Origin: an uncultured Gammaproteobacteria bacterium
GTDB taxonomy: Bacteria > Patescibacteriota > Patescibacteriia > Magasanikbacterales > GWA2-37-8
Reading direction: 5' to 3'
NCBI GenBank assembly: GCA_964514995.1
Contig: CAZETA010000001.1
Span: 15,148 to 79,147 of the forward strand
Length of the DNA: 64,000 nucleotides
Positions 13,429 through 44,741 of the stretch are shown here, in pieces. A model generated the notes under the pieces. That model was not told the origin of the DNA and did not search any database. It saw only the letters and a program-made list of their open reading frames with translations. The position numbers and the translations under genes are program-made. How positions within the stretch are numbered: position 1 is the stretch's first letter; each line of letters starts with the position of its first letter.

Positions 13429-15165
13429 TTGGATATGAGCGATTTTCCTTCTATTAACAATTTGCTGAATAAATCCGGTAAAAAATCCGGCAGCAATAAC
13501 ATCACTGTCTCAGCGCCTGATGATACAGCAGAAGAGAAGTTTGATAAAAAGATTCTGGCCATGGATCTGAAGAATAAAGAAGAGCTCGCTGCCAAACAGG
13601 CGGCTTCTTTGGGTGTACCATATATCGATCTCAGCAAATTTCCAGTTGCAGCCGAAGCATTAAAAATTATCCCGCCCAAGCAAGCAGCCGAAGAGCGGGT
13701 GGTTTGTTTTTTTAACATGCCCGGAGAACTGCGGCTCGGTTGTGTCGACCTTACTGATCGCATCCAGGAAGTTGCCTATCAATTAGGTGAAAGACATCAC
13801 GCAACTACGCGGATATATCTGATTTCCCAGTACAGTTTCGATAAAGTTGTGAAACTGTATACGACATTGCCTTCAGTGAAGCCTGTTAATAAGGATATCA
13901 ATATTACTGACGAAGAGTTGGAAAAATTTAAGTCAGGCGTAGTTGATTTTAGGGGTTTAGAGCAGCAGTTTTTAGACGTTTCTATCAGTGATATTTTGAC
14001 ATTAATGATTGCTGCGGCTTTAAAGATGGAATCGTCTGATGTGCATATTGAAGCAGAAGAAAATGGCATCATGGTTCGTTATCGAATTGATGGTATTTTG
14101 CATGATGTGGCCACGTTGCCTAAGGAGCAATGGAAAAAATTTGTTTCTCGCATCAAGTTATTGGCCGCTCTAAAAATAAATGTCGACGATCGTCCGCAAG
14201 ATGGTCGAGTTACGATTCGACTATCTTCAGGAGGTCTTGACGTCCGCGTCTCGACCATGCCGACTATTTATGGAGAGAGTGTCGTGATGAGAATTTTACA
14301 TAGCGGCAACAAGGGAGTGACTTTTGACGAGCTAGGATTGCGCGGTGATGCATATATTAAATTAAAAAAAGAAGTGGAACGTCCAAACGGCATGATTATT
14401 ACGACCGGTCCGACCGGTTCAGGGAAAACCACAACCATGTATGCAATTTTAAATACTTTGAATAAGCCCGGGGTAAAGATTATTACTTTGGAAGATCCGG
14501 TAGAAATCAAAATTGATGGTATCAATCAAAGCCAAGTTGATGTCAGTCGTGAGTATACCTTTGCCAAAGGTTTGCGCAGTCTCCTGCGCCAGGATCCAGA
14601 TATTTGTTTGGTTGGTGAAATCCGTGATTTAGAAACTGCCGAAATAGCCATTCAGGCAGCCTTAACCGGTCATTTAATGCTATCCACTATTCATACTAAT
14701 AGCGCCTCGGGTACGATTCCACGATTTTTGTCTATGGGTGTAAAGCCTTTTTTGTTGGCACCTTCGCTTAATTCTGTCATTGGTCAGCGGTTGGTGCGTA
14801 AAATATGCGAATATTGCCAGGTTGAGGACGAGCTGAGTTCTGAACAGAAAGAGAAAGTTCTGCAGAATTTAGAAACATTGCCACAAAAGGAGAAGGACTT
14901 GGTTGATTTTAAAAAATTGATTTTTTATAAGGGTGAGGGGTGTAAAGAATGTAGCGGGTTAGGGTATAAAGGGAGGATCGGAATTTATGAGATTTTTATC
15001 ATGAATAAGGAATTGGAGCAAATTATTTTAGGGCCTCAAATTTCTGAGTATGTCGTTCAGGATTGGGCTACTAAAAATGGTATGGTGACGATGGTTCAGG
15101 ATGGCCTCCTTAAAGCTTTGGATAAAATTACGACAGTGGAAGAGGTGTTTAGAGTTATTGAGTAG
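13429..15165 (+). CDS. pilB: Type II/IV secretion ATPase of the PilB/GspE/ComGA family.
   Basis: Walker A GPTGSGKTTT, Asp and His boxes, tetra-Cys motif CEYC...CKEC. No pilC/pilM/pilin genes adjacent. Confidence 0.8.
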   Translation: MDMSDFPSINNLLNKSGKKSGSNNITVSAPDDTAEEKFDKKILAMDLKNKEELAAKQAASLGVPYIDLSKFPVAAEALKIIPPKQAAEERVVCFFNMPGELRLGCVDLTDRIQEVAYQLGERHHATTRIYLISQYSFDKVVKLYTTLPSVKPVNKDINITDEELEKFKSGVVDFRGLEQQFLDVSISDILTLMIAAALKMESSDVHIEAEENGIMVRYRIDGILHDVATLPKEQWKKFVSRIKLLAALKINVDDRPQDGRVTIRLSSGGLDVRVSTMPTIYGESVVMRILHSGNKGVTFDELGLRGDAYIKLKKEVERPNGMIITTGPTGSGKTTTMYAILNTLNKPGVKIITLEDPVEIKIDGINQSQVDVSREYTFAKGLRSLLRQDPDICLVGEIRDLETAEIAIQAALTGHLMLSTIHTNSASGTIPRFLSMGVKPFLLAPSLNSVIGQRLVRKICEYCQVEDELSSEQKEKVLQNLETLPQKEKDLVDFKKLIFYKGEGCKECSGLGYKGRIGIYEIFIMNKELEQIILGPQISEYVVQDWATKNGMVTMVQDGLLKALDKITTVEEVFRVIE

Positions 15166-39917: not shown

Positions 39918-39964
39918 AATTCTAATGCCATATCTATCCTGGCTATTTTAGAATTGTATGGCTG

Positions 39965-40036
39965 TAGCCCCAACGGGAATCGAACCCGTGTTACCACATT
40001 GAAAGCGTGGTGTCCTAGCCACTAGACGATGAGGCC
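39965..40036 (-). tRNA. tRNA-Glu (anticodon UUC).
   Basis: The reverse complement GGCCTCATCGTCTAGTGGCTAGGACACCACGCTTTCAATGTGGTAACACGGGTTCGATTCCCGTTGGGGCTA folds as a cloverleaf with anticodon loop CTTTCAA. CCA is not encoded. Confidence 0.75.
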
Positions 40037-40132
40037 AAATAGAGTAGCCATATTATACCTAATTTTAAATTAAAGTCAATAATTGTATTGACTTTAAGGG
40101 CTAATTTTAGTAGTATTATCTTGCTTATTACA

Positions 40133-40206
40133 TGTCAGGGTAGCTCAGTTGGTTAGAGCACGGGATTCATAACCCCGAGGTCGAGAGTTCGAATCTCTCC
40201 CCTGAC
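40133..40206 (+). tRNA. tRNA with CAU anticodon (elongator Met or lysidine-type Ile2).
   Basis: GTCAGGGTAGCTCAGTTGGTTAGAGCACGGGATTCATAACCCCGAGGTCGAGAGTTCGAATCTCTCCCCTGACA. Perfect acceptor and T stems, anticodon loop TTCATAA. G1-C72 paired, so not initiator-like. Confidence 0.8.
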
Positions 40207-40245
40207 ACAGTTGTCAAAAACCGCCATTTATTTTAATAATTTCTA

Positions 40246-40281
40246 TAAAAAACCAACTAAATCTACAATGGTTGGTTTTTT
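40246..40281 (+). terminator. Rho-independent terminator after the tRNA.
   Basis: aaaaaccaac taaatctacaat ggttggtttttt. Confidence 0.6.
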
Positions 40282-40648: not shown

Positions 40649-40879
40649 ATGAGCACGCCCAGTAAGCCCCCGGTGGTCGCGGCGATGCCGGTCACCGACG
40701 AGATGTCCCACGGACCCGACCGCGGTCGGGATGCCGAGTTCCCGACCGACAAGCTGCCGCCCTTCGACTGGTCGAAGGTGGAGTACGACCGCTGGATCGA
40801 GCGGCGCGGCCCGCGTTGCTCGACGTGCGGCGGGACGCTGGGGCATGACCGCCCCTTCAGCAGCAACTGCAGCTGCTGA
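40649..40879 (+). CDS. Hypothetical 76-aa Cys-motif protein (possible zinc ribbon) in a GC-rich islet.
   Basis: ggagga RBS 8 nt upstream of the ATG. C-terminal C..C...14..C.C motif (CSTCGG....NCSC). Local GC content is far above the flanks. Confidence 0.35.
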   Translation: MSTPSKPPVVAAMPVTDEMSHGPDRGRDAEFPTDKLPPFDWSKVEYDRWIERRGPRCSTCGGTLGHDRPFSSNCSC

Positions 40880-41095: not shown

Positions 41096-41205
41096 GTTAA
41101 TGTGTAGGCTGACGTATAAAAAACAAACCCCACCAGCAATGGGGTATGTCATATTTAACAACAAACAGCTCTTATACTGACGTTTTAGCAGTTATACGGA
41201 TTGAA

Positions 41206-41445: not shown

Positions 41446-41835
41446 TCAGAAATGGAGCAACCTATTAAAGTCTTTGCCTCCCTTATACTGGTACTTGTGT
41501 AGTAGGGTGTCTTTTATTGCCTGAGTACAAGATAACTTTCCGTAGGCATCAACCCATGTGCTGATCGTTTTAGAATCAATGACATACATATTTTTATCAG
41601 GCGGTATCAGAATAAAATAATAGTTTTCTCGTGGCTCAAACTTTCCGACATTAAAGATCCATCTCGGTAGCCTGCCTTTTATCTGAATATCTATATGCCT
41701 GCCATCTTGTTGTCGGATAATACAATCAATGCCTTTGTCATCTACTATCGGAACATAGACATCAAAATTATGGCTCAATAGCTCTGATACAACTCTATAC
41801 TCACACGATTTTCCAAATGATAATGATTCTGGCAT
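41446..41835 (-). CDS. Small candidate PD-(D/E)xK-fold nuclease-like protein (130 aa).
   Basis: Ordered E (GKSCEYRVVSELL) ... D (FDVYVPIVDDKGIDCII) ... QxK (HIDIQIKG) pattern, as in Hjc/Mrr-type small nucleases. The start is placed at the second Met because the upstream in-frame codons cover a highly structured region. Confidence 0.4.
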   Translation of the reverse strand: MPESLSFGKSCEYRVVSELLSHNFDVYVPIVDDKGIDCIIRQQDGRHIDIQIKGRLPRWIFNVGKFEPRENYYFILIPPDKNMYVIDSKTISTWVDAYGKLSCTQAIKDTLLHKYQYKGGKDFNRLLHF

Positions 41836-41856
41836 ACAAACAAAAACGGCCCCTTT

Positions 41857-41950
41857 ATCCGGGCGGCAACCTTTCGGTCGCCCTACCACCTTTCGGAGGT
41901 AGACTACGTCAGCAGAACCCGGTCAAAAAGACCGTTTTACTGACGTAGAT
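41857..41950 (-). other. Structured leader-like region: two adjacent hairpins with cc-tttc-gg loops, then a 9-bp TGACGT-containing stem enclosing a smaller hairpin.
   Basis: gggcggc aacctttcg gtcgccc; ctaccacc tttc ggaggtag; ctacgtcag ...cggtc aaaaa gaccg... ctgacgtag. Confidence 0.4.
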
Positions 41951-42199
41951 TTGATGACCATGCCTTAGGTTGCCCTAAAGTTTAGGTCGCTAATTGTACC
42001 GACTTATAAAAGTCGATTTCATTTTAACATACAGGAAAAATAAAGCCAATGTAGCGATATGCACAAGCTACAATCGACTCTAAACCGACGAAATCGATGC
42101 CGTATATCGTCGATTAGTGTAAACATAGAGAAATTTACTTGCTGAGATTAATAGTTTGAGTTATGGTAAGCTTAATTCAGCTTTTCTATAATTAAATTA

Positions 42200-43114
42200 G
42201 TGCGATTTATGAAAAAGATTAGAGTTTGTTATAGAAGTAATAATAAGATCACTCCTTTATTTATAATAGGCTACTACTCAGATGGCGGATTTTTTATTAA
42301 GGATTTAATAAAAAGTTACGGTGAGAATTATCTAGTATCGAAAACCTCTATTCCGAGAAATTTAAAACCTGCTGAATTTACTAATTCCAAAATTAATAAA
42401 AAAAATACTTGGCACACAAGTTTTATTAAGCCAAAGTTTTCACATCATGGTAATGGGTTTGCTCAGATATCTGAAACCGGTCTCAGGAGTGGTGTTTTTA
42501 AGACGGTAGGATTTTTTAAAGGGGTTGCTATTAAGAGTATAAATTTATTTTTACGCAATAACGATGGCGGCCCTCTTTACGCATTTAATATTTGGGGTCT
42601 TGATAATATGGAGTTTAACCAAGATGTAAAAGGGGACGATATCATCTTAGATGACGCGGACTTTTTTGATTTTAGGCCTCCTTATACAAATACTCCAGGT
42701 TGTTTTATATTCGAATTTTTCTATCTTCCTAATCAAGCAAAAGGTCACATAAATAAAGATGGTAGAATATGGCTTCGTTGGGACGGGTATGGTGACTATA
42801 TTGCCAGGTATATACCTGAAGAGGAGTATAGTCCAGGGTTTCTAGCAATCTCATGTAAAAAAGATGTGCTCGGGAGTGGGTTTAATCAATGGCCGTTTGG
42901 TCTATCTATGAGCGGTTGTCCGGGGTTTCCTCGTCTATTAGATTTTTTTCGTTCTTATAAGCAAATAAATGTTATCTACCCTGTACGATCTTTTGGTAGT
43001 GAAGTACCTTTTAATGCGAGAGAATTATTATTTACAAAGTTTTGGCACACAGTTTCTATTCTAGATGATCGAGTTTCAAAAATAATTAATGCATTGGTTG
43101 CAAAAATTAAATAG
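42200..43114 (+). CDS. Hypothetical protein (304 aa), island gene.
   Basis: Clean ORF with a TATAAT box about 15 nt upstream. No recognisable motif. Very AT-rich codon usage. Confidence 0.45.
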   Translation: MRFMKKIRVCYRSNNKITPLFIIGYYSDGGFFIKDLIKSYGENYLVSKTSIPRNLKPAEFTNSKINKKNTWHTSFIKPKFSHHGNGFAQISETGLRSGVFKTVGFFKGVAIKSINLFLRNNDGGPLYAFNIWGLDNMEFNQDVKGDDIILDDADFFDFRPPYTNTPGCFIFEFFYLPNQAKGHINKDGRIWLRWDGYGDYIARYIPEEEYSPGFLAISCKKDVLGSGFNQWPFGLSMSGCPGFPRLLDFFRSYKQINVIYPVRSFGSEVPFNARELLFTKFWHTVSILDDRVSKIINALVAKIK

Positions 43115-43123
43115 TTTTATAAT

Positions 43124-44071
43124 ATGCAATTGTCTATTCGGTATATAGATACGAACATTAAAAGGTATGATGGCTTTCATAAAGGCACCTCTTCTTTATG
43201 GGGTGTAAGATTAGCGAAAGGTTACGGGGTATTACCTATAAAGCACGAGCATGATCTAAATCCACAAAATAAAAATTTTGATTATTCTGATAAACAGATT
43301 GCACTAGCAAAAAATATCAGAATAGGTTTATATCAAAGAATACTACAGCCAGATGATATAAAGAAAGCGTTGTATTATAGTCCAGTTACTCTAGAATTTG
43401 AAATATTTAGTTCTATATATACCGACCACGACGGTGTAATTTCTATGCCAGATCTTGAGGAGGATAAAAAAGAAGAATTAGCACACGCTGTTATGGTATA
43501 TGGACACGATAAGAATGGCTATAAGATATTCAATCATTGGGCTAATTGGGGCAATAATGGTAAGGGGTATGTTTCCTTAGATTATTTAAAAAAGTACTTT
43601 ATTACGGCATTTGCATCTGATCTTGTGATAAAGATGCATGACACTCGTTTATGTTTAGAAAAGAAAAAGGTCAGGATAAAAAACCTAGACTATTACTTTT
43701 CATTTTATGAGACCCCTTCTTTTTTGGGTGACCATAAACCTATTTTTAATATTGAGATTTCTGATAGTAAAAATGAATTAGCGGGTTGGATACATTTTAT
43801 ATTTAACAATGACAGTGTAGAAATTTTAGACATTTTTGTTCTAGCTGAGTTTAGACATAATGGGCTTGGTTCTTTTTTGCTAAATAAGATGATTGAATAT
43901 ACAAAGCCTAAAAATGTTACTGGTTTCATTTCCGGCTATGATCTAGTAAATGATAGAGATGAGATTGTAAAGGATTTCCTAATAAAGAATGGTTTTACAA
44001 TAGCCCGTGATACTAGTGGATTTAGGGATTGTAAATATAAAATTTTAAAAATAGATAATTGTAAATGGTAG
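43124..44071 (+). CDS. Fusion of an N-terminal papain-like (C1-like) domain with a C-terminal GNAT acetyltransferase fold.
   Basis: HAVMVYGHDKNGYKIFNHWANWGNNGKGYVSLDY matches the C1 His / Asn-Ser-Trp-Gly..Trp-Gly..Gly-Tyr region. The N-terminal KGTSSLWGV sits where QGxCGSCWAF is expected, but without Cys. C-terminal FRHNGLGSFLLNKM is a GNAT motif A. Confidence 0.5.
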   Translation: MQLSIRYIDTNIKRYDGFHKGTSSLWGVRLAKGYGVLPIKHEHDLNPQNKNFDYSDKQIALAKNIRIGLYQRILQPDDIKKALYYSPVTLEFEIFSSIYTDHDGVISMPDLEEDKKEELAHAVMVYGHDKNGYKIFNHWANWGNNGKGYVSLDYLKKYFITAFASDLVIKMHDTRLCLEKKKVRIKNLDYYFSFYETPSFLGDHKPIFNIEISDSKNELAGWIHFIFNNDSVEILDIFVLAEFRHNGLGSFLLNKMIEYTKPKNVTGFISGYDLVNDRDEIVKDFLIKNGFTIARDTSGFRDCKYKILKIDNCKW

Positions 44072-44166: not shown

Positions 44167-44631
44167 ATGCTCGATCGATCAAGAGTTACACATACGGTAG
44201 GGGAAACCATTGTGGAGCCAAAAATACCCAAAGAGATTACAAAACATATAGACTTCAGCTTAAATGTTGACGCGCCTCATTTTGAACCTGGTGATATAGC
44301 CAGACAGATTGAAGAACTTGCCGTAGCAGATGGCCTTTCTCGTACTGATTTTGAATATATACAGAATGAATTTGATGAGGGAAATAATCTAATTTCTTTG
44401 TCTGCAGTAGTTAAATCTAGTGCTGCTAAACGGCAGAACTGTGGAGAGATTGTATATAGGTATATGGTTGAAGGAGATCATGGTGAAGATTGGGGAGTTA
44501 TAAATCATACTTGTATTTTCAGGTTTTCATCAAAAGTAGAGACGCCTGATGAAATGACAGATATAGAGATTATCTTGGTGTACGATTCGAAAAGAAAGGT
44601 ATGGGTAAAAAAAGGCCAAAGCTTGCAGTAA
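44167..44631 (+). CDS. Hypothetical protein (154 aa), island gene.
   Basis: Clean ORF. No recognisable motif. Confidence 0.45.
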   Translation: MLDRSRVTHTVGETIVEPKIPKEITKHIDFSLNVDAPHFEPGDIARQIEELAVADGLSRTDFEYIQNEFDEGNNLISLSAVVKSSAAKRQNCGEIVYRYMVEGDHGEDWGVINHTCIFRFSSKVETPDEMTDIEIILVYDSKRKVWVKKGQSLQ

Positions 44632-44716: not shown

Positions 44717-44741
44717 GCCCTTCTTCATCAGAAGGAGTTTG
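44717..44741 (+). terminator. Weak terminator-like hairpin closing the island.
   Basis: ccttct tcatc agaagg then agttt. Confidence 0.3.

Follow-up and report, generated by a model that had tools for sequence, protein, structure and literature searches.

Gene and domain organization

The 64,000-nucleotide stretch analysed here (positions 15,148 to 79,147 of contig CAZETA010000001.1, assembly GCA_964514995.1, from an uncultured Gammaproteobacteria bacterium; hereafter, the window) carries, in an accessory island of low guanine-plus-cytosine (GC) content, a gene for one compact two-domain cytoplasmic protein, P0001, which combines a remnant of a papain-family (C1) peptidase devoid of the catalytic cysteine with a minimal GNAT acetyltransferase domain that retains an intact acetyl-CoA motif. 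The gene and the residues discussed below are the following:

43124..44071, forward strand: target open reading frame (ORF) P0001, complete, 315 amino acids (aa), truncated C1-like domain plus minimal GNAT domain
43124..43639, forward strand: residues 1-172, xylellain-type papain-family (C1) domain, truncated by ~45-47 residues at the start of the mature fold
43181..43201, forward strand: K20-G-T-S-S-L-W26, equivalent to the 'GCNGG-Y-P-W' loop of C1 peptidases (papain 64-70), a wall of the S2/S3 subsites
43208..43210, forward strand: R29, invariant in the 65 of 65 fusions covering the column, a fusion-specific residue
43484..43486, forward strand: H121, equivalent of the catalytic His159, present in 73 of 73 fusions
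43532..43567, forward strand: N137-H-W139-A-N-W142-G143-N-N-G146-K-G148, corresponding to the Asn175-Ser-Trp177-Gly-x-x-Trp-Gly motif, with invariant Trp and Gly residues
43646..44062, forward strand: residues 175-313, GNAT fold in which the alpha1-alpha2 arm is missing
43820..43822, forward strand: E233, candidate general base, located on beta4 and 11 residues ahead of motif A, 63 of 73 fusions
43853..43870, forward strand: R244-H-N-G247-L-G249, GNAT motif A, the acetyl-CoA pyrophosphate-binding loop, found family-wide
43940..43942, forward strand: D273 in the beta5-alpha4 loop, 71 of the 71 fusions covering the column

The two domain assignments are real and far beyond chance. The original prediction, made from the DNA letters, had described a C1-like domain fused to a GNAT acetyltransferase in an accessory island, and this description is supported by the profile and fold matches to C1 peptidases, by the match to Acetyltransf_1 and by the location in a low-GC island that starts at a tRNA-Met gene. 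Pfam gave no PF00112 match for the target protein at E <= 1; a profile of its seven closest homologues compared with solved C1 peptidases retrieved xylellain (PDB 3OIS, E = 8.4e-6) and cathepsins K and L (E of about 3e-3), and H121 falls on the catalytic His in the alignments to xylellain and the cathepsins, including cathepsin K. The N-terminal domain also matches a PHROG 'peptidase' family. An hhalign comparison with papain equated residues 86-147 with papain 128-186, H121 with His159, N137 with Asn175, and W139 with Trp177, in agreement with the earlier recognition of the C1 His and Asn-Ser-Trp-Gly region. Outside the deleted helix described below, the protein retains one half of the old cleft, made of the GCNGG-derived loop K20-W26, H121, W139, and the Gly-rich loop; in C1 peptidases, the papain GCNGG loop, His159, and Trp177 line the S2-S1' cleft. 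The C-terminal part passes the Pfam Acetyltransf_1 model (PF00583), with residues 201-265 scoring 32.9 bits where the cut-off is 20.7, in a match that begins at profile position 29, and models as a GNAT fold; its segment RHNGLGSFLL had been correctly read as motif A.

Loss of the nucleophile segment

The catalytic cysteine of the peptidase domain is a different matter. KGTSSLWGV had been taken as the counterpart of the QGxCGSCWAF motif, with Ser/Leu in the expected place of Cys, but the relatives of the domain do not bear out this pairing. A search with the N-domain profile among 1.84 billion representatives yielded 1289 matches at E <= 1e-3, the best 150 of which (50%-identity representatives) were aligned to the profile and then classified. 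At least 65 of these 150 are fusions with a GNAT domain that fits the target's own GNAT profile. The QGxxG[ST]C motif is present in none of these 65 fusions, as against at least 29 of the 85 non-fusions among the same best 150, and in the canonical relatives it lies about 45 residues N-terminal to the segment matching target residues 2-30.

The MAFFT alignment pairs M1-QLSIRYIDTNIKRYDG of the target with 'LELSPRFVYNECKKLDG' of the canonical relative P0072 and 'EYSEQELLDCDRRSYGC' of papain, and K20-GTSSLW-26 with papain N64-GGYPWS, that is, the GCNGG loop of the S2-S3 subsites. When P0072 is itself compared with cathepsin K, its QGDEGTC lies on QGQCGSC (Cys25) and its LELSP on LNLSP (Ser49), and it aligns to xylellain at E = 2e-29; through P0072, S4 of the target corresponds to cathepsin K Ser49 and K20-W26 to the GCGG/GCNGG motif. 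This bridge to cathepsin K and xylellain places the nucleophile independently of the papain sequence. The fused proteins P0022, P0029, P0032, and P0020, all above the Peptidase_C1 threshold, start at profile positions 71-135 and end at ~198-203 of 220, whereas the canonical P0072 covers positions 1-202. By these alignments, the target begins at about position 46-48 of a mature C1 domain, which implies that Gln19, Cys25, and the central helix were deleted rather than substituted and that no residue of the target occupies the position expected for the catalytic Cys. In C1 peptidases, Cys25 heads the central helix and comes after Gln19 of the oxyanion hole, while His159 belongs to the beta-barrel (R) domain and is oriented by Asn175. 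With the oxyanion Gln, the catalytic Cys, and the central helix gone, the N-terminal domain cannot act as a thiol or Ser peptidase. Since the nucleophile was looked for and found missing, the protein is not a functional member of peptidase family C1. Of the two options first offered, a Ser variant or a dead binding domain, the latter is therefore favoured, while the former arose from a misalignment that hid the deletion of the nucleophile helix.

Several other ways of accounting for the missing cysteine were explored and discarded. A hidden Markov model (HMM) of the Cys helix, built from that segment of 28 canonical relatives, recovered a control peptidase in locus L012 at 3e-14 and nothing in the six frames of the window nor in the fusion loci L001-L016; these results dismiss a split enzyme with the Cys helix supplied in trans or in frame upstream. 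The upstream in-frame ORF is not the missing part of the C1 domain either, as it is an ORFan without C1 similarity and the TAG that ends it is a normal stop. Circular permutation was discarded because the C-terminal strand is the canonical C-terminus and no conserved Cys follows it (C303 occurs in only 24 of 73 fusions), and replacement of Cys by Ser or Leu is excluded by the alignments to canonical relatives, cathepsin K, and xylellain. An ordinary C1 peptidase with its conserved Cys elsewhere, the alternative raised by the original prediction itself, does not fit either: no conserved Cys exists in the N-domain of the family and no ORF nearby encodes a Cys helix. True replacements do occur among other homologues. 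P0151 and P0105, full-length xylellain-type C1 proteins without a GNAT domain, have QG(D/S)EGSS instead of QGxxGSC and represent genuine Cys-to-Ser nucleophile substitutions, P0105 with an N-terminal extension of ~220 aa.

Predicted structure and sequence conservation

An AlphaFold2 (AF2) prediction from seven sequences gave a poor N-terminal part, and the final model was obtained from an alignment of 73 fusions, with a mean predicted local distance difference test (pLDDT) score of 95.2 and a predicted template modelling (pTM) score of 0.91, as one compact unit. In the N-domain of this model, helices 5-16 and 24-34 are the equivalents of papain alpha2 and alpha3, and alpha1 has none. The GNAT domain consists of a beta-hairpin (176-197), beta-strands 207-213, 219-228, and 231-239, helix 248-260, strand 264-270, helix 278-288, and strands 291-295 and 303-309. 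It contains the core beta4-alpha3-beta5-alpha4 of the fold, and in the N-terminal beta1-alpha1-alpha2 arm there are no helices between strands 176-185/188-197 and 207-213. In GNAT enzymes, the alpha1-alpha2 arm normally builds one wall of the acceptor site. E233 on beta4 stands at a position that we take to be analogous to that of the catalytic Glu of Gcn5. Foldseek searches against the PDB returned xylellain as the top match (E = 5.7e-8), followed by NatD, RimI-like proteins, PaiA, SpeG, and GCN5, with the match to papain-family structures covering ~160 residues of 215-270; the toxins TacT, AtaT, and KacT are absent from the top 50-60 fold matches.

The same 73 fusions, 18-57% identical, served to measure conservation. 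H121, W139, G143, G148, and Y154 are found in all 73, W142 and P109 in 72, and G35, like R29, in all 65 sequences that cover the column, while motif A retains R/Q in 69, the first G in 66, and the second G in 68 of the 73. Such a pattern, across sequences this diverse, indicates strong purifying selection. In the canonical Cys-bearing relatives, the column of R29 is variable (K/R/Q/D/S/E), which makes this residue fusion-specific. The Asn equivalent to Asn175, at position 137, is kept in the target and in only 34 of 73 fusions, being replaced elsewhere by L, V, or T. That the former catalytic His is strictly retained without the Cys, and often without the Asn, suggests that it has acquired a new role.

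Genomic context of the gene

The target gene has a GC content of 31.4%, against 42% for the window, and lies in a low-GC stretch at about 41.1-44.7 kb (34.7% GC) within an accessory island that begins at a tRNA-Met gene. The chromosome segment around the island encodes DnaE, PheST, and TsaD, and the divergent tRNA-Glu (-) and tRNA-Met (+) genes at 39964-40208 mark the border between core genes (TsaD, DnaE) and the island. We found no integrase in the island and no attachment (att) repeats derived from the tRNA-Met gene at its far end. The island edge and the flanking genes are:

40134..40208, forward strand: tRNA-Met, at which the low-GC accessory island with the target gene (about 40.2-44.7 kb) has its left edge
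42200/42209..43114, forward strand: upstream ORFan, 301-304 aa, in the same frame as the target, with TAG plus three codons between them
44167..44631, forward strand: downstream ORFan P0008, 154 aa, singleton cluster

The junction between the upstream ORFan and the target reads …AKIK, one TAG, FYNMQLS…. TAG is a regular stop in the long ORFs of the window (10/34), where TGA is rare (2/34). The start Met of the target is also that of all close homologues, which makes read-through from the upstream ORFan unlikely. There is no terminator between these two genes, which are probably co-transcribed, and the upstream ORFan is not a conserved partner; a terminator-like hairpin occurs at 44719-44737, 3' of P0008. 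Neither flanking ORF has a match in Pfam, NCBIfam, PADLOC, or PHROG, and BLASTP and tblastn searches across the fetched loci found no relatives of them beside other family members. PADLOC scans of the immediate neighbours of the close family were equally negative. The BLASTP, tblastn, and PADLOC scans accordingly led us to reject a partner or immunity gene shared across the close family, and the proposal that a cognate immunity gene lies at 42200 or 44167 is not borne out: both are ORFans without relatives near the family, which leaves a toxin-immunity pair unsupported at this locus.

Other elements occupy the left half of the island. A LOOT RNA (Rfam RF03000) at 41865-41988 on the reverse strand scores 84 bits against a gathering score of 46 and is immediately 5' of a 147-aa PD-(D/E)XK-like ORF (41446-41889, reverse strand), whose annotated GTG start it overlaps. 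This ORF matches phrog_5018 at 2.4e-7 and, weakly, Pfam PDDEXK_5 and PADLOC PDC-S01; the nuclease-like gene might have this RNA as its leader or regulator. Between 40590 and 40990, 400 bp reach 64.6% GC within the 42% GC window and hold a 76-aa ORF from an ATG at 40650, which is preceded by AAAGGAGG. Copies of an imperfect direct repeat of 28 nt, at 40244-40271 and 41115-41142, flank the segment and resemble terminator hairpins; the segment seems to be foreign DNA inserted from a high-GC donor.

Family distribution and neighbourhoods

Close homologues of the target (47-58% identity) are rare, forming 7 clusters in 5.8 billion proteins, with two genome matches, in one Saccharibacteria and one Gammaproteobacteria metagenome-assembled genome; a distant clade occurs in Gemmataceae. 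The fusions as a whole span bacteria of the candidate phyla radiation (CPR), Proteobacteria, and Planctomycetes. This widespread, large family is uncharacterised and is annotated in databases as 'GNAT' only. A literature search retrieved neither a C1-GNAT fusion nor a pairing of PycTM with an acetyltransferase, and a 2023 survey of papain-family evolution, in which short bacterial C1A peptidases of xylellain type are mentioned, names no fusion to an acetyltransferase. A pattern scan of metagenome contigs gave no match. The unnamed 494-aa viral protein A0A3G8F6J3 of BFVD aligns over 259 columns (E = 8.8e-11), apparently with both domains; it has the length of the P0022/P0029 subclade, which carries an N-terminal extension of ~175 aa, and may therefore be a phage-borne member.

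The surroundings of the close family include serine recombinases, Type ISP and Type III restriction-modification (RM) systems, DruA, DUF3800, DUF4238, SduA_C, a ParB-methyltransferase, an S24 repressor, and methyltransferases. Distant fusions lie near an EcoRV-like RM system (L017) or near SocA_Panacea, GIY-YIG, SNase, and recombinase genes (L022). In the Gemmataceae-type clade, an HNH gene is directly downstream of the fusion in L011 and L016. Fusions of this type are ~420-450 aa long, with a C-terminal extension; at L011 11122-11751 and 11816-13426 and at L016 8325-8954, the fusion is followed by the HNH endonuclease gene and, in L011, also by an AAA+ ATPase gene. Two members, P0164 and P0187, bear a C-terminal DUF433 (antitoxin-like) domain.

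One subclade has a neighbour of its own. The fusions P0020 and P0024 (38% identical to each other) are encoded 2-12 nt after a protein with three transmembrane (TM) segments; the two 3-TM proteins are homologous (E = 8e-6) and match PADLOC PycTM models over nearly their full length (E = 1.9e-6 and 9.9e-5). The two-gene arrangement, a 158-173-aa 3-TM protein followed by the truncated C1/GNAT protein, is conserved in L018 (6467-8161), L019, L020, and L021 (529-2156), where the 3-TM proteins also match PADLOC 2TM-effector models and no cyclase is found. Annotation sources disagree on this family: the precomputed Pfam record assigns PF18967 (PycTM) to L018 6467-6988 and L021 529-1005, whereas an hmmscan of the same 3-TM genes with Pfam 2025 does not return PycTM even at E <= 10. 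The pair is a candidate for an undescribed membrane-effector module. Neither the window nor the close-family loci contain a PycTM-like gene, and the idea that the N-terminal extension of P0029-type fusions is itself a PycTM module was discarded, as it shows no similarity.

Functional interpretation and alternatives

Taken together, these data lead us to propose, with a probability of about 0.55, that the target is an acetyl-CoA-dependent transferase in which a dead peptidase remnant binds the acceptor. The predicted N-acyltransferase would use this remnant in place of the missing GNAT arm, and a peptide or protein amine would be its most probable acceptor. Both H121 and R29, the latter specific to the fusions, may have been recruited into a composite site. 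The gene would act as a stand-alone accessory gene belonging to the gene pool of mobilome and defence islands, and its context suggests a role in inter-genome conflict.

Several observations weigh against this proposal. By motif spacing, the position of the usual general-acid Tyr appears to be Leu (L286), and the weak matches to streptothricin, aminoglycoside, and polyamine acetyltransferases mean that the acceptor could be a small molecule. The conservation of the His could be structural, and the orientation of H121 and R29 toward the acetyl-CoA site, like the replacement of alpha1-alpha2 by the N-domain, is hypothetical. The placement in defence islands is circumstantial: PADLOC-DB v2 gave no match for the target protein or the distant fusions, and collections of phages, plasmids, and viral contigs contained no fusion and gave only C1-only matches, in Lak megaphages, for which reason a phage or plasmid origin was dismissed.

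A bolder extension of the proposal, which we regard as improbable, would place the truncated C1/GNAT protein at the core of undescribed conflict systems, as their sensor or enzyme, acting alone here and elsewhere with PycTM-like effectors or HNH nucleases. The papain remnant would bind a peptide or protein cue or target, and the acetyl-CoA thioester would replace, beside His159, the acyl-enzyme thioester once formed by the lost Cys25, the old deacylation machinery now driving aminolysis, that is, acetyl transfer.

Several alternative explanations were weighed. The mobile, accessory location, the weak NCBIfam matches to Sat4 and AAC(6'), and the fold matches to nourseothricin/streptothricin and aminoglycoside acetyltransferases and to an integron-cassette GNAT would suit a resistance or detoxification enzyme directed at a peptide-like antibiotic or toxin (of streptothricin, microcin C, or aminoglycoside type), with the remnant binding its peptide moiety; nevertheless, these matches reflect generic GNAT similarity far under the family cut-offs and no biosynthetic or transport genes are nearby, so we consider such a function unlikely, although it is compatible with the acyltransferase proposal and departs from it only in the substrate. 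We are similarly doubtful of a sensor or enzymatic component of an undescribed anti-phage system of abortive-infection type: the PycTM-like 3-TM proteins 2-12 nt upstream of P0020 and P0024, the defence-gene neighbourhoods of most loci, and the downstream HNH genes of the Gemmataceae-type clade speak for it, but the subfamily of the window has no PycTM-like or other conserved partner and the Pfam 2025 hmmscan fails to reproduce the PycTM call. Still less probable is the GNAT toxin of a toxin-antitoxin (TA) pair, acetylating aminoacyl-tRNA in the manner of TacT or AtaT and neutralized by a flanking ORFan as antitoxin or immunity protein. The small unannotated genes on both sides, the lack of an upstream terminator, the proximity of relatives to TA-type genes (SocA_Panacea, barstar), and the DUF433 fusions are consistent with this scenario, yet the neighbours are ORFans and none is conserved across the close family, Pfam detected no ribbon-helix-helix (RHH) or DUF1778-type antitoxin, and the fold matches did not include the known toxins of this class.

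Two further explanations concern the state of the domains themselves, and we consider both very improbable. A decaying or non-enzymatic relic, with both half-domains reduced to inactive scaffolds, could explain why the Cys helix, the GNAT alpha1-alpha2 arm, and the apparent general-acid Tyr are all missing, but it is hard to reconcile with an intact ORF, a very confident fold prediction, and a large and diverse family that strictly keeps motif A, H121, D273, and R29. The least probable of all is a bifunctional protein in which a papain-like peptidase, with Ser substituted as its nucleophile, works alongside the GNAT domain. S23 is invariant in the closest 7 sequences, S or T is frequent at positions 22-23, His159 is kept, and true Cys-to-Ser variants exist among the full-length relatives P0151 and P0105; however, KGTSSLW aligns with the GCNGG loop, the nucleophile helix and oxyanion Gln are absent, positions 22-24 vary across the family (S/C/T, T/W/S, S/P/G), and fewer than half of the fusions keep Asn175.

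If the acyltransferase proposal is correct, a protease fold would have shed its nucleophile element and become the half of an acyltransferase that binds the substrate, with each domain lacking an element for which the other may stand in. The family's repeated occurrence in defence and mobilome islands and the PycTM-like pairing in one subclade would make the family a candidate new component of conflict systems. The analysis also corrects a tempting mis-annotation, the 'Ser-nucleophile papain', that would otherwise propagate.

Comparison with known systems

Unlike the type II TA GNAT toxins TacT, AtaT, KacT, and ItaT, the target has no conserved adjacent antitoxin. The resemblance to the membrane effectors of Pycsar and CBASS systems (PycTM, 2TM) lies in the P0020/P0024 fusions, which directly follow a PycTM-like 3-TM protein; in contrast with those systems, there is neither a cyclase nor a domain binding cyclic nucleoside monophosphates (cNMP), and the pairing is absent from the locus of the window and from the close family. 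The target belongs to the GNAT superfamily, although one of the defining elements is absent from it. Among acetyltransferases that modify protein N-termini or small amines, it shares with NatD/Naa40, RimI, PaiA, SpeG/SSAT, and GCN5 the beta4-alpha3-beta5-alpha4 core, the R-x-x-G-x-G motif A, and the beta4 Glu. It differs from them in the lack of the alpha1-alpha2 arm, in a beta5-alpha4 insertion carrying the near-invariant D273, and in having a peptidase remnant as accessory domain, and it scores under the cut-off of every NCBIfam equivalog. Compared with the xylellain-type short bacterial C1A peptidases (PDB 3OIS; MEROPS C1, PF00112), the target is shorter by ~45-47 residues at the start of the mature domain, the segment to which Gln19, Cys25, and the central helix belong; its family does not conserve Asn175, and a GNAT domain is fused. 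It is not a peptidase.

Degenerate papain-fold domains that serve in binding are known from the C39-like domain of HlyB-type ABC transporters and from the C1 pseudo-proteases SERA5 and silicatein. Those proteins keep the full fold with the Cys substituted, whereas the target deletes the whole nucleophile segment, so that the structural position of Cys25, occupied in the Ser variants of silicatein and SERA type, does not exist in it. What the target has in common with the C39-like domains, SERA5, and silicatein is a papain fold that lost thiol catalysis and was kept under selection.

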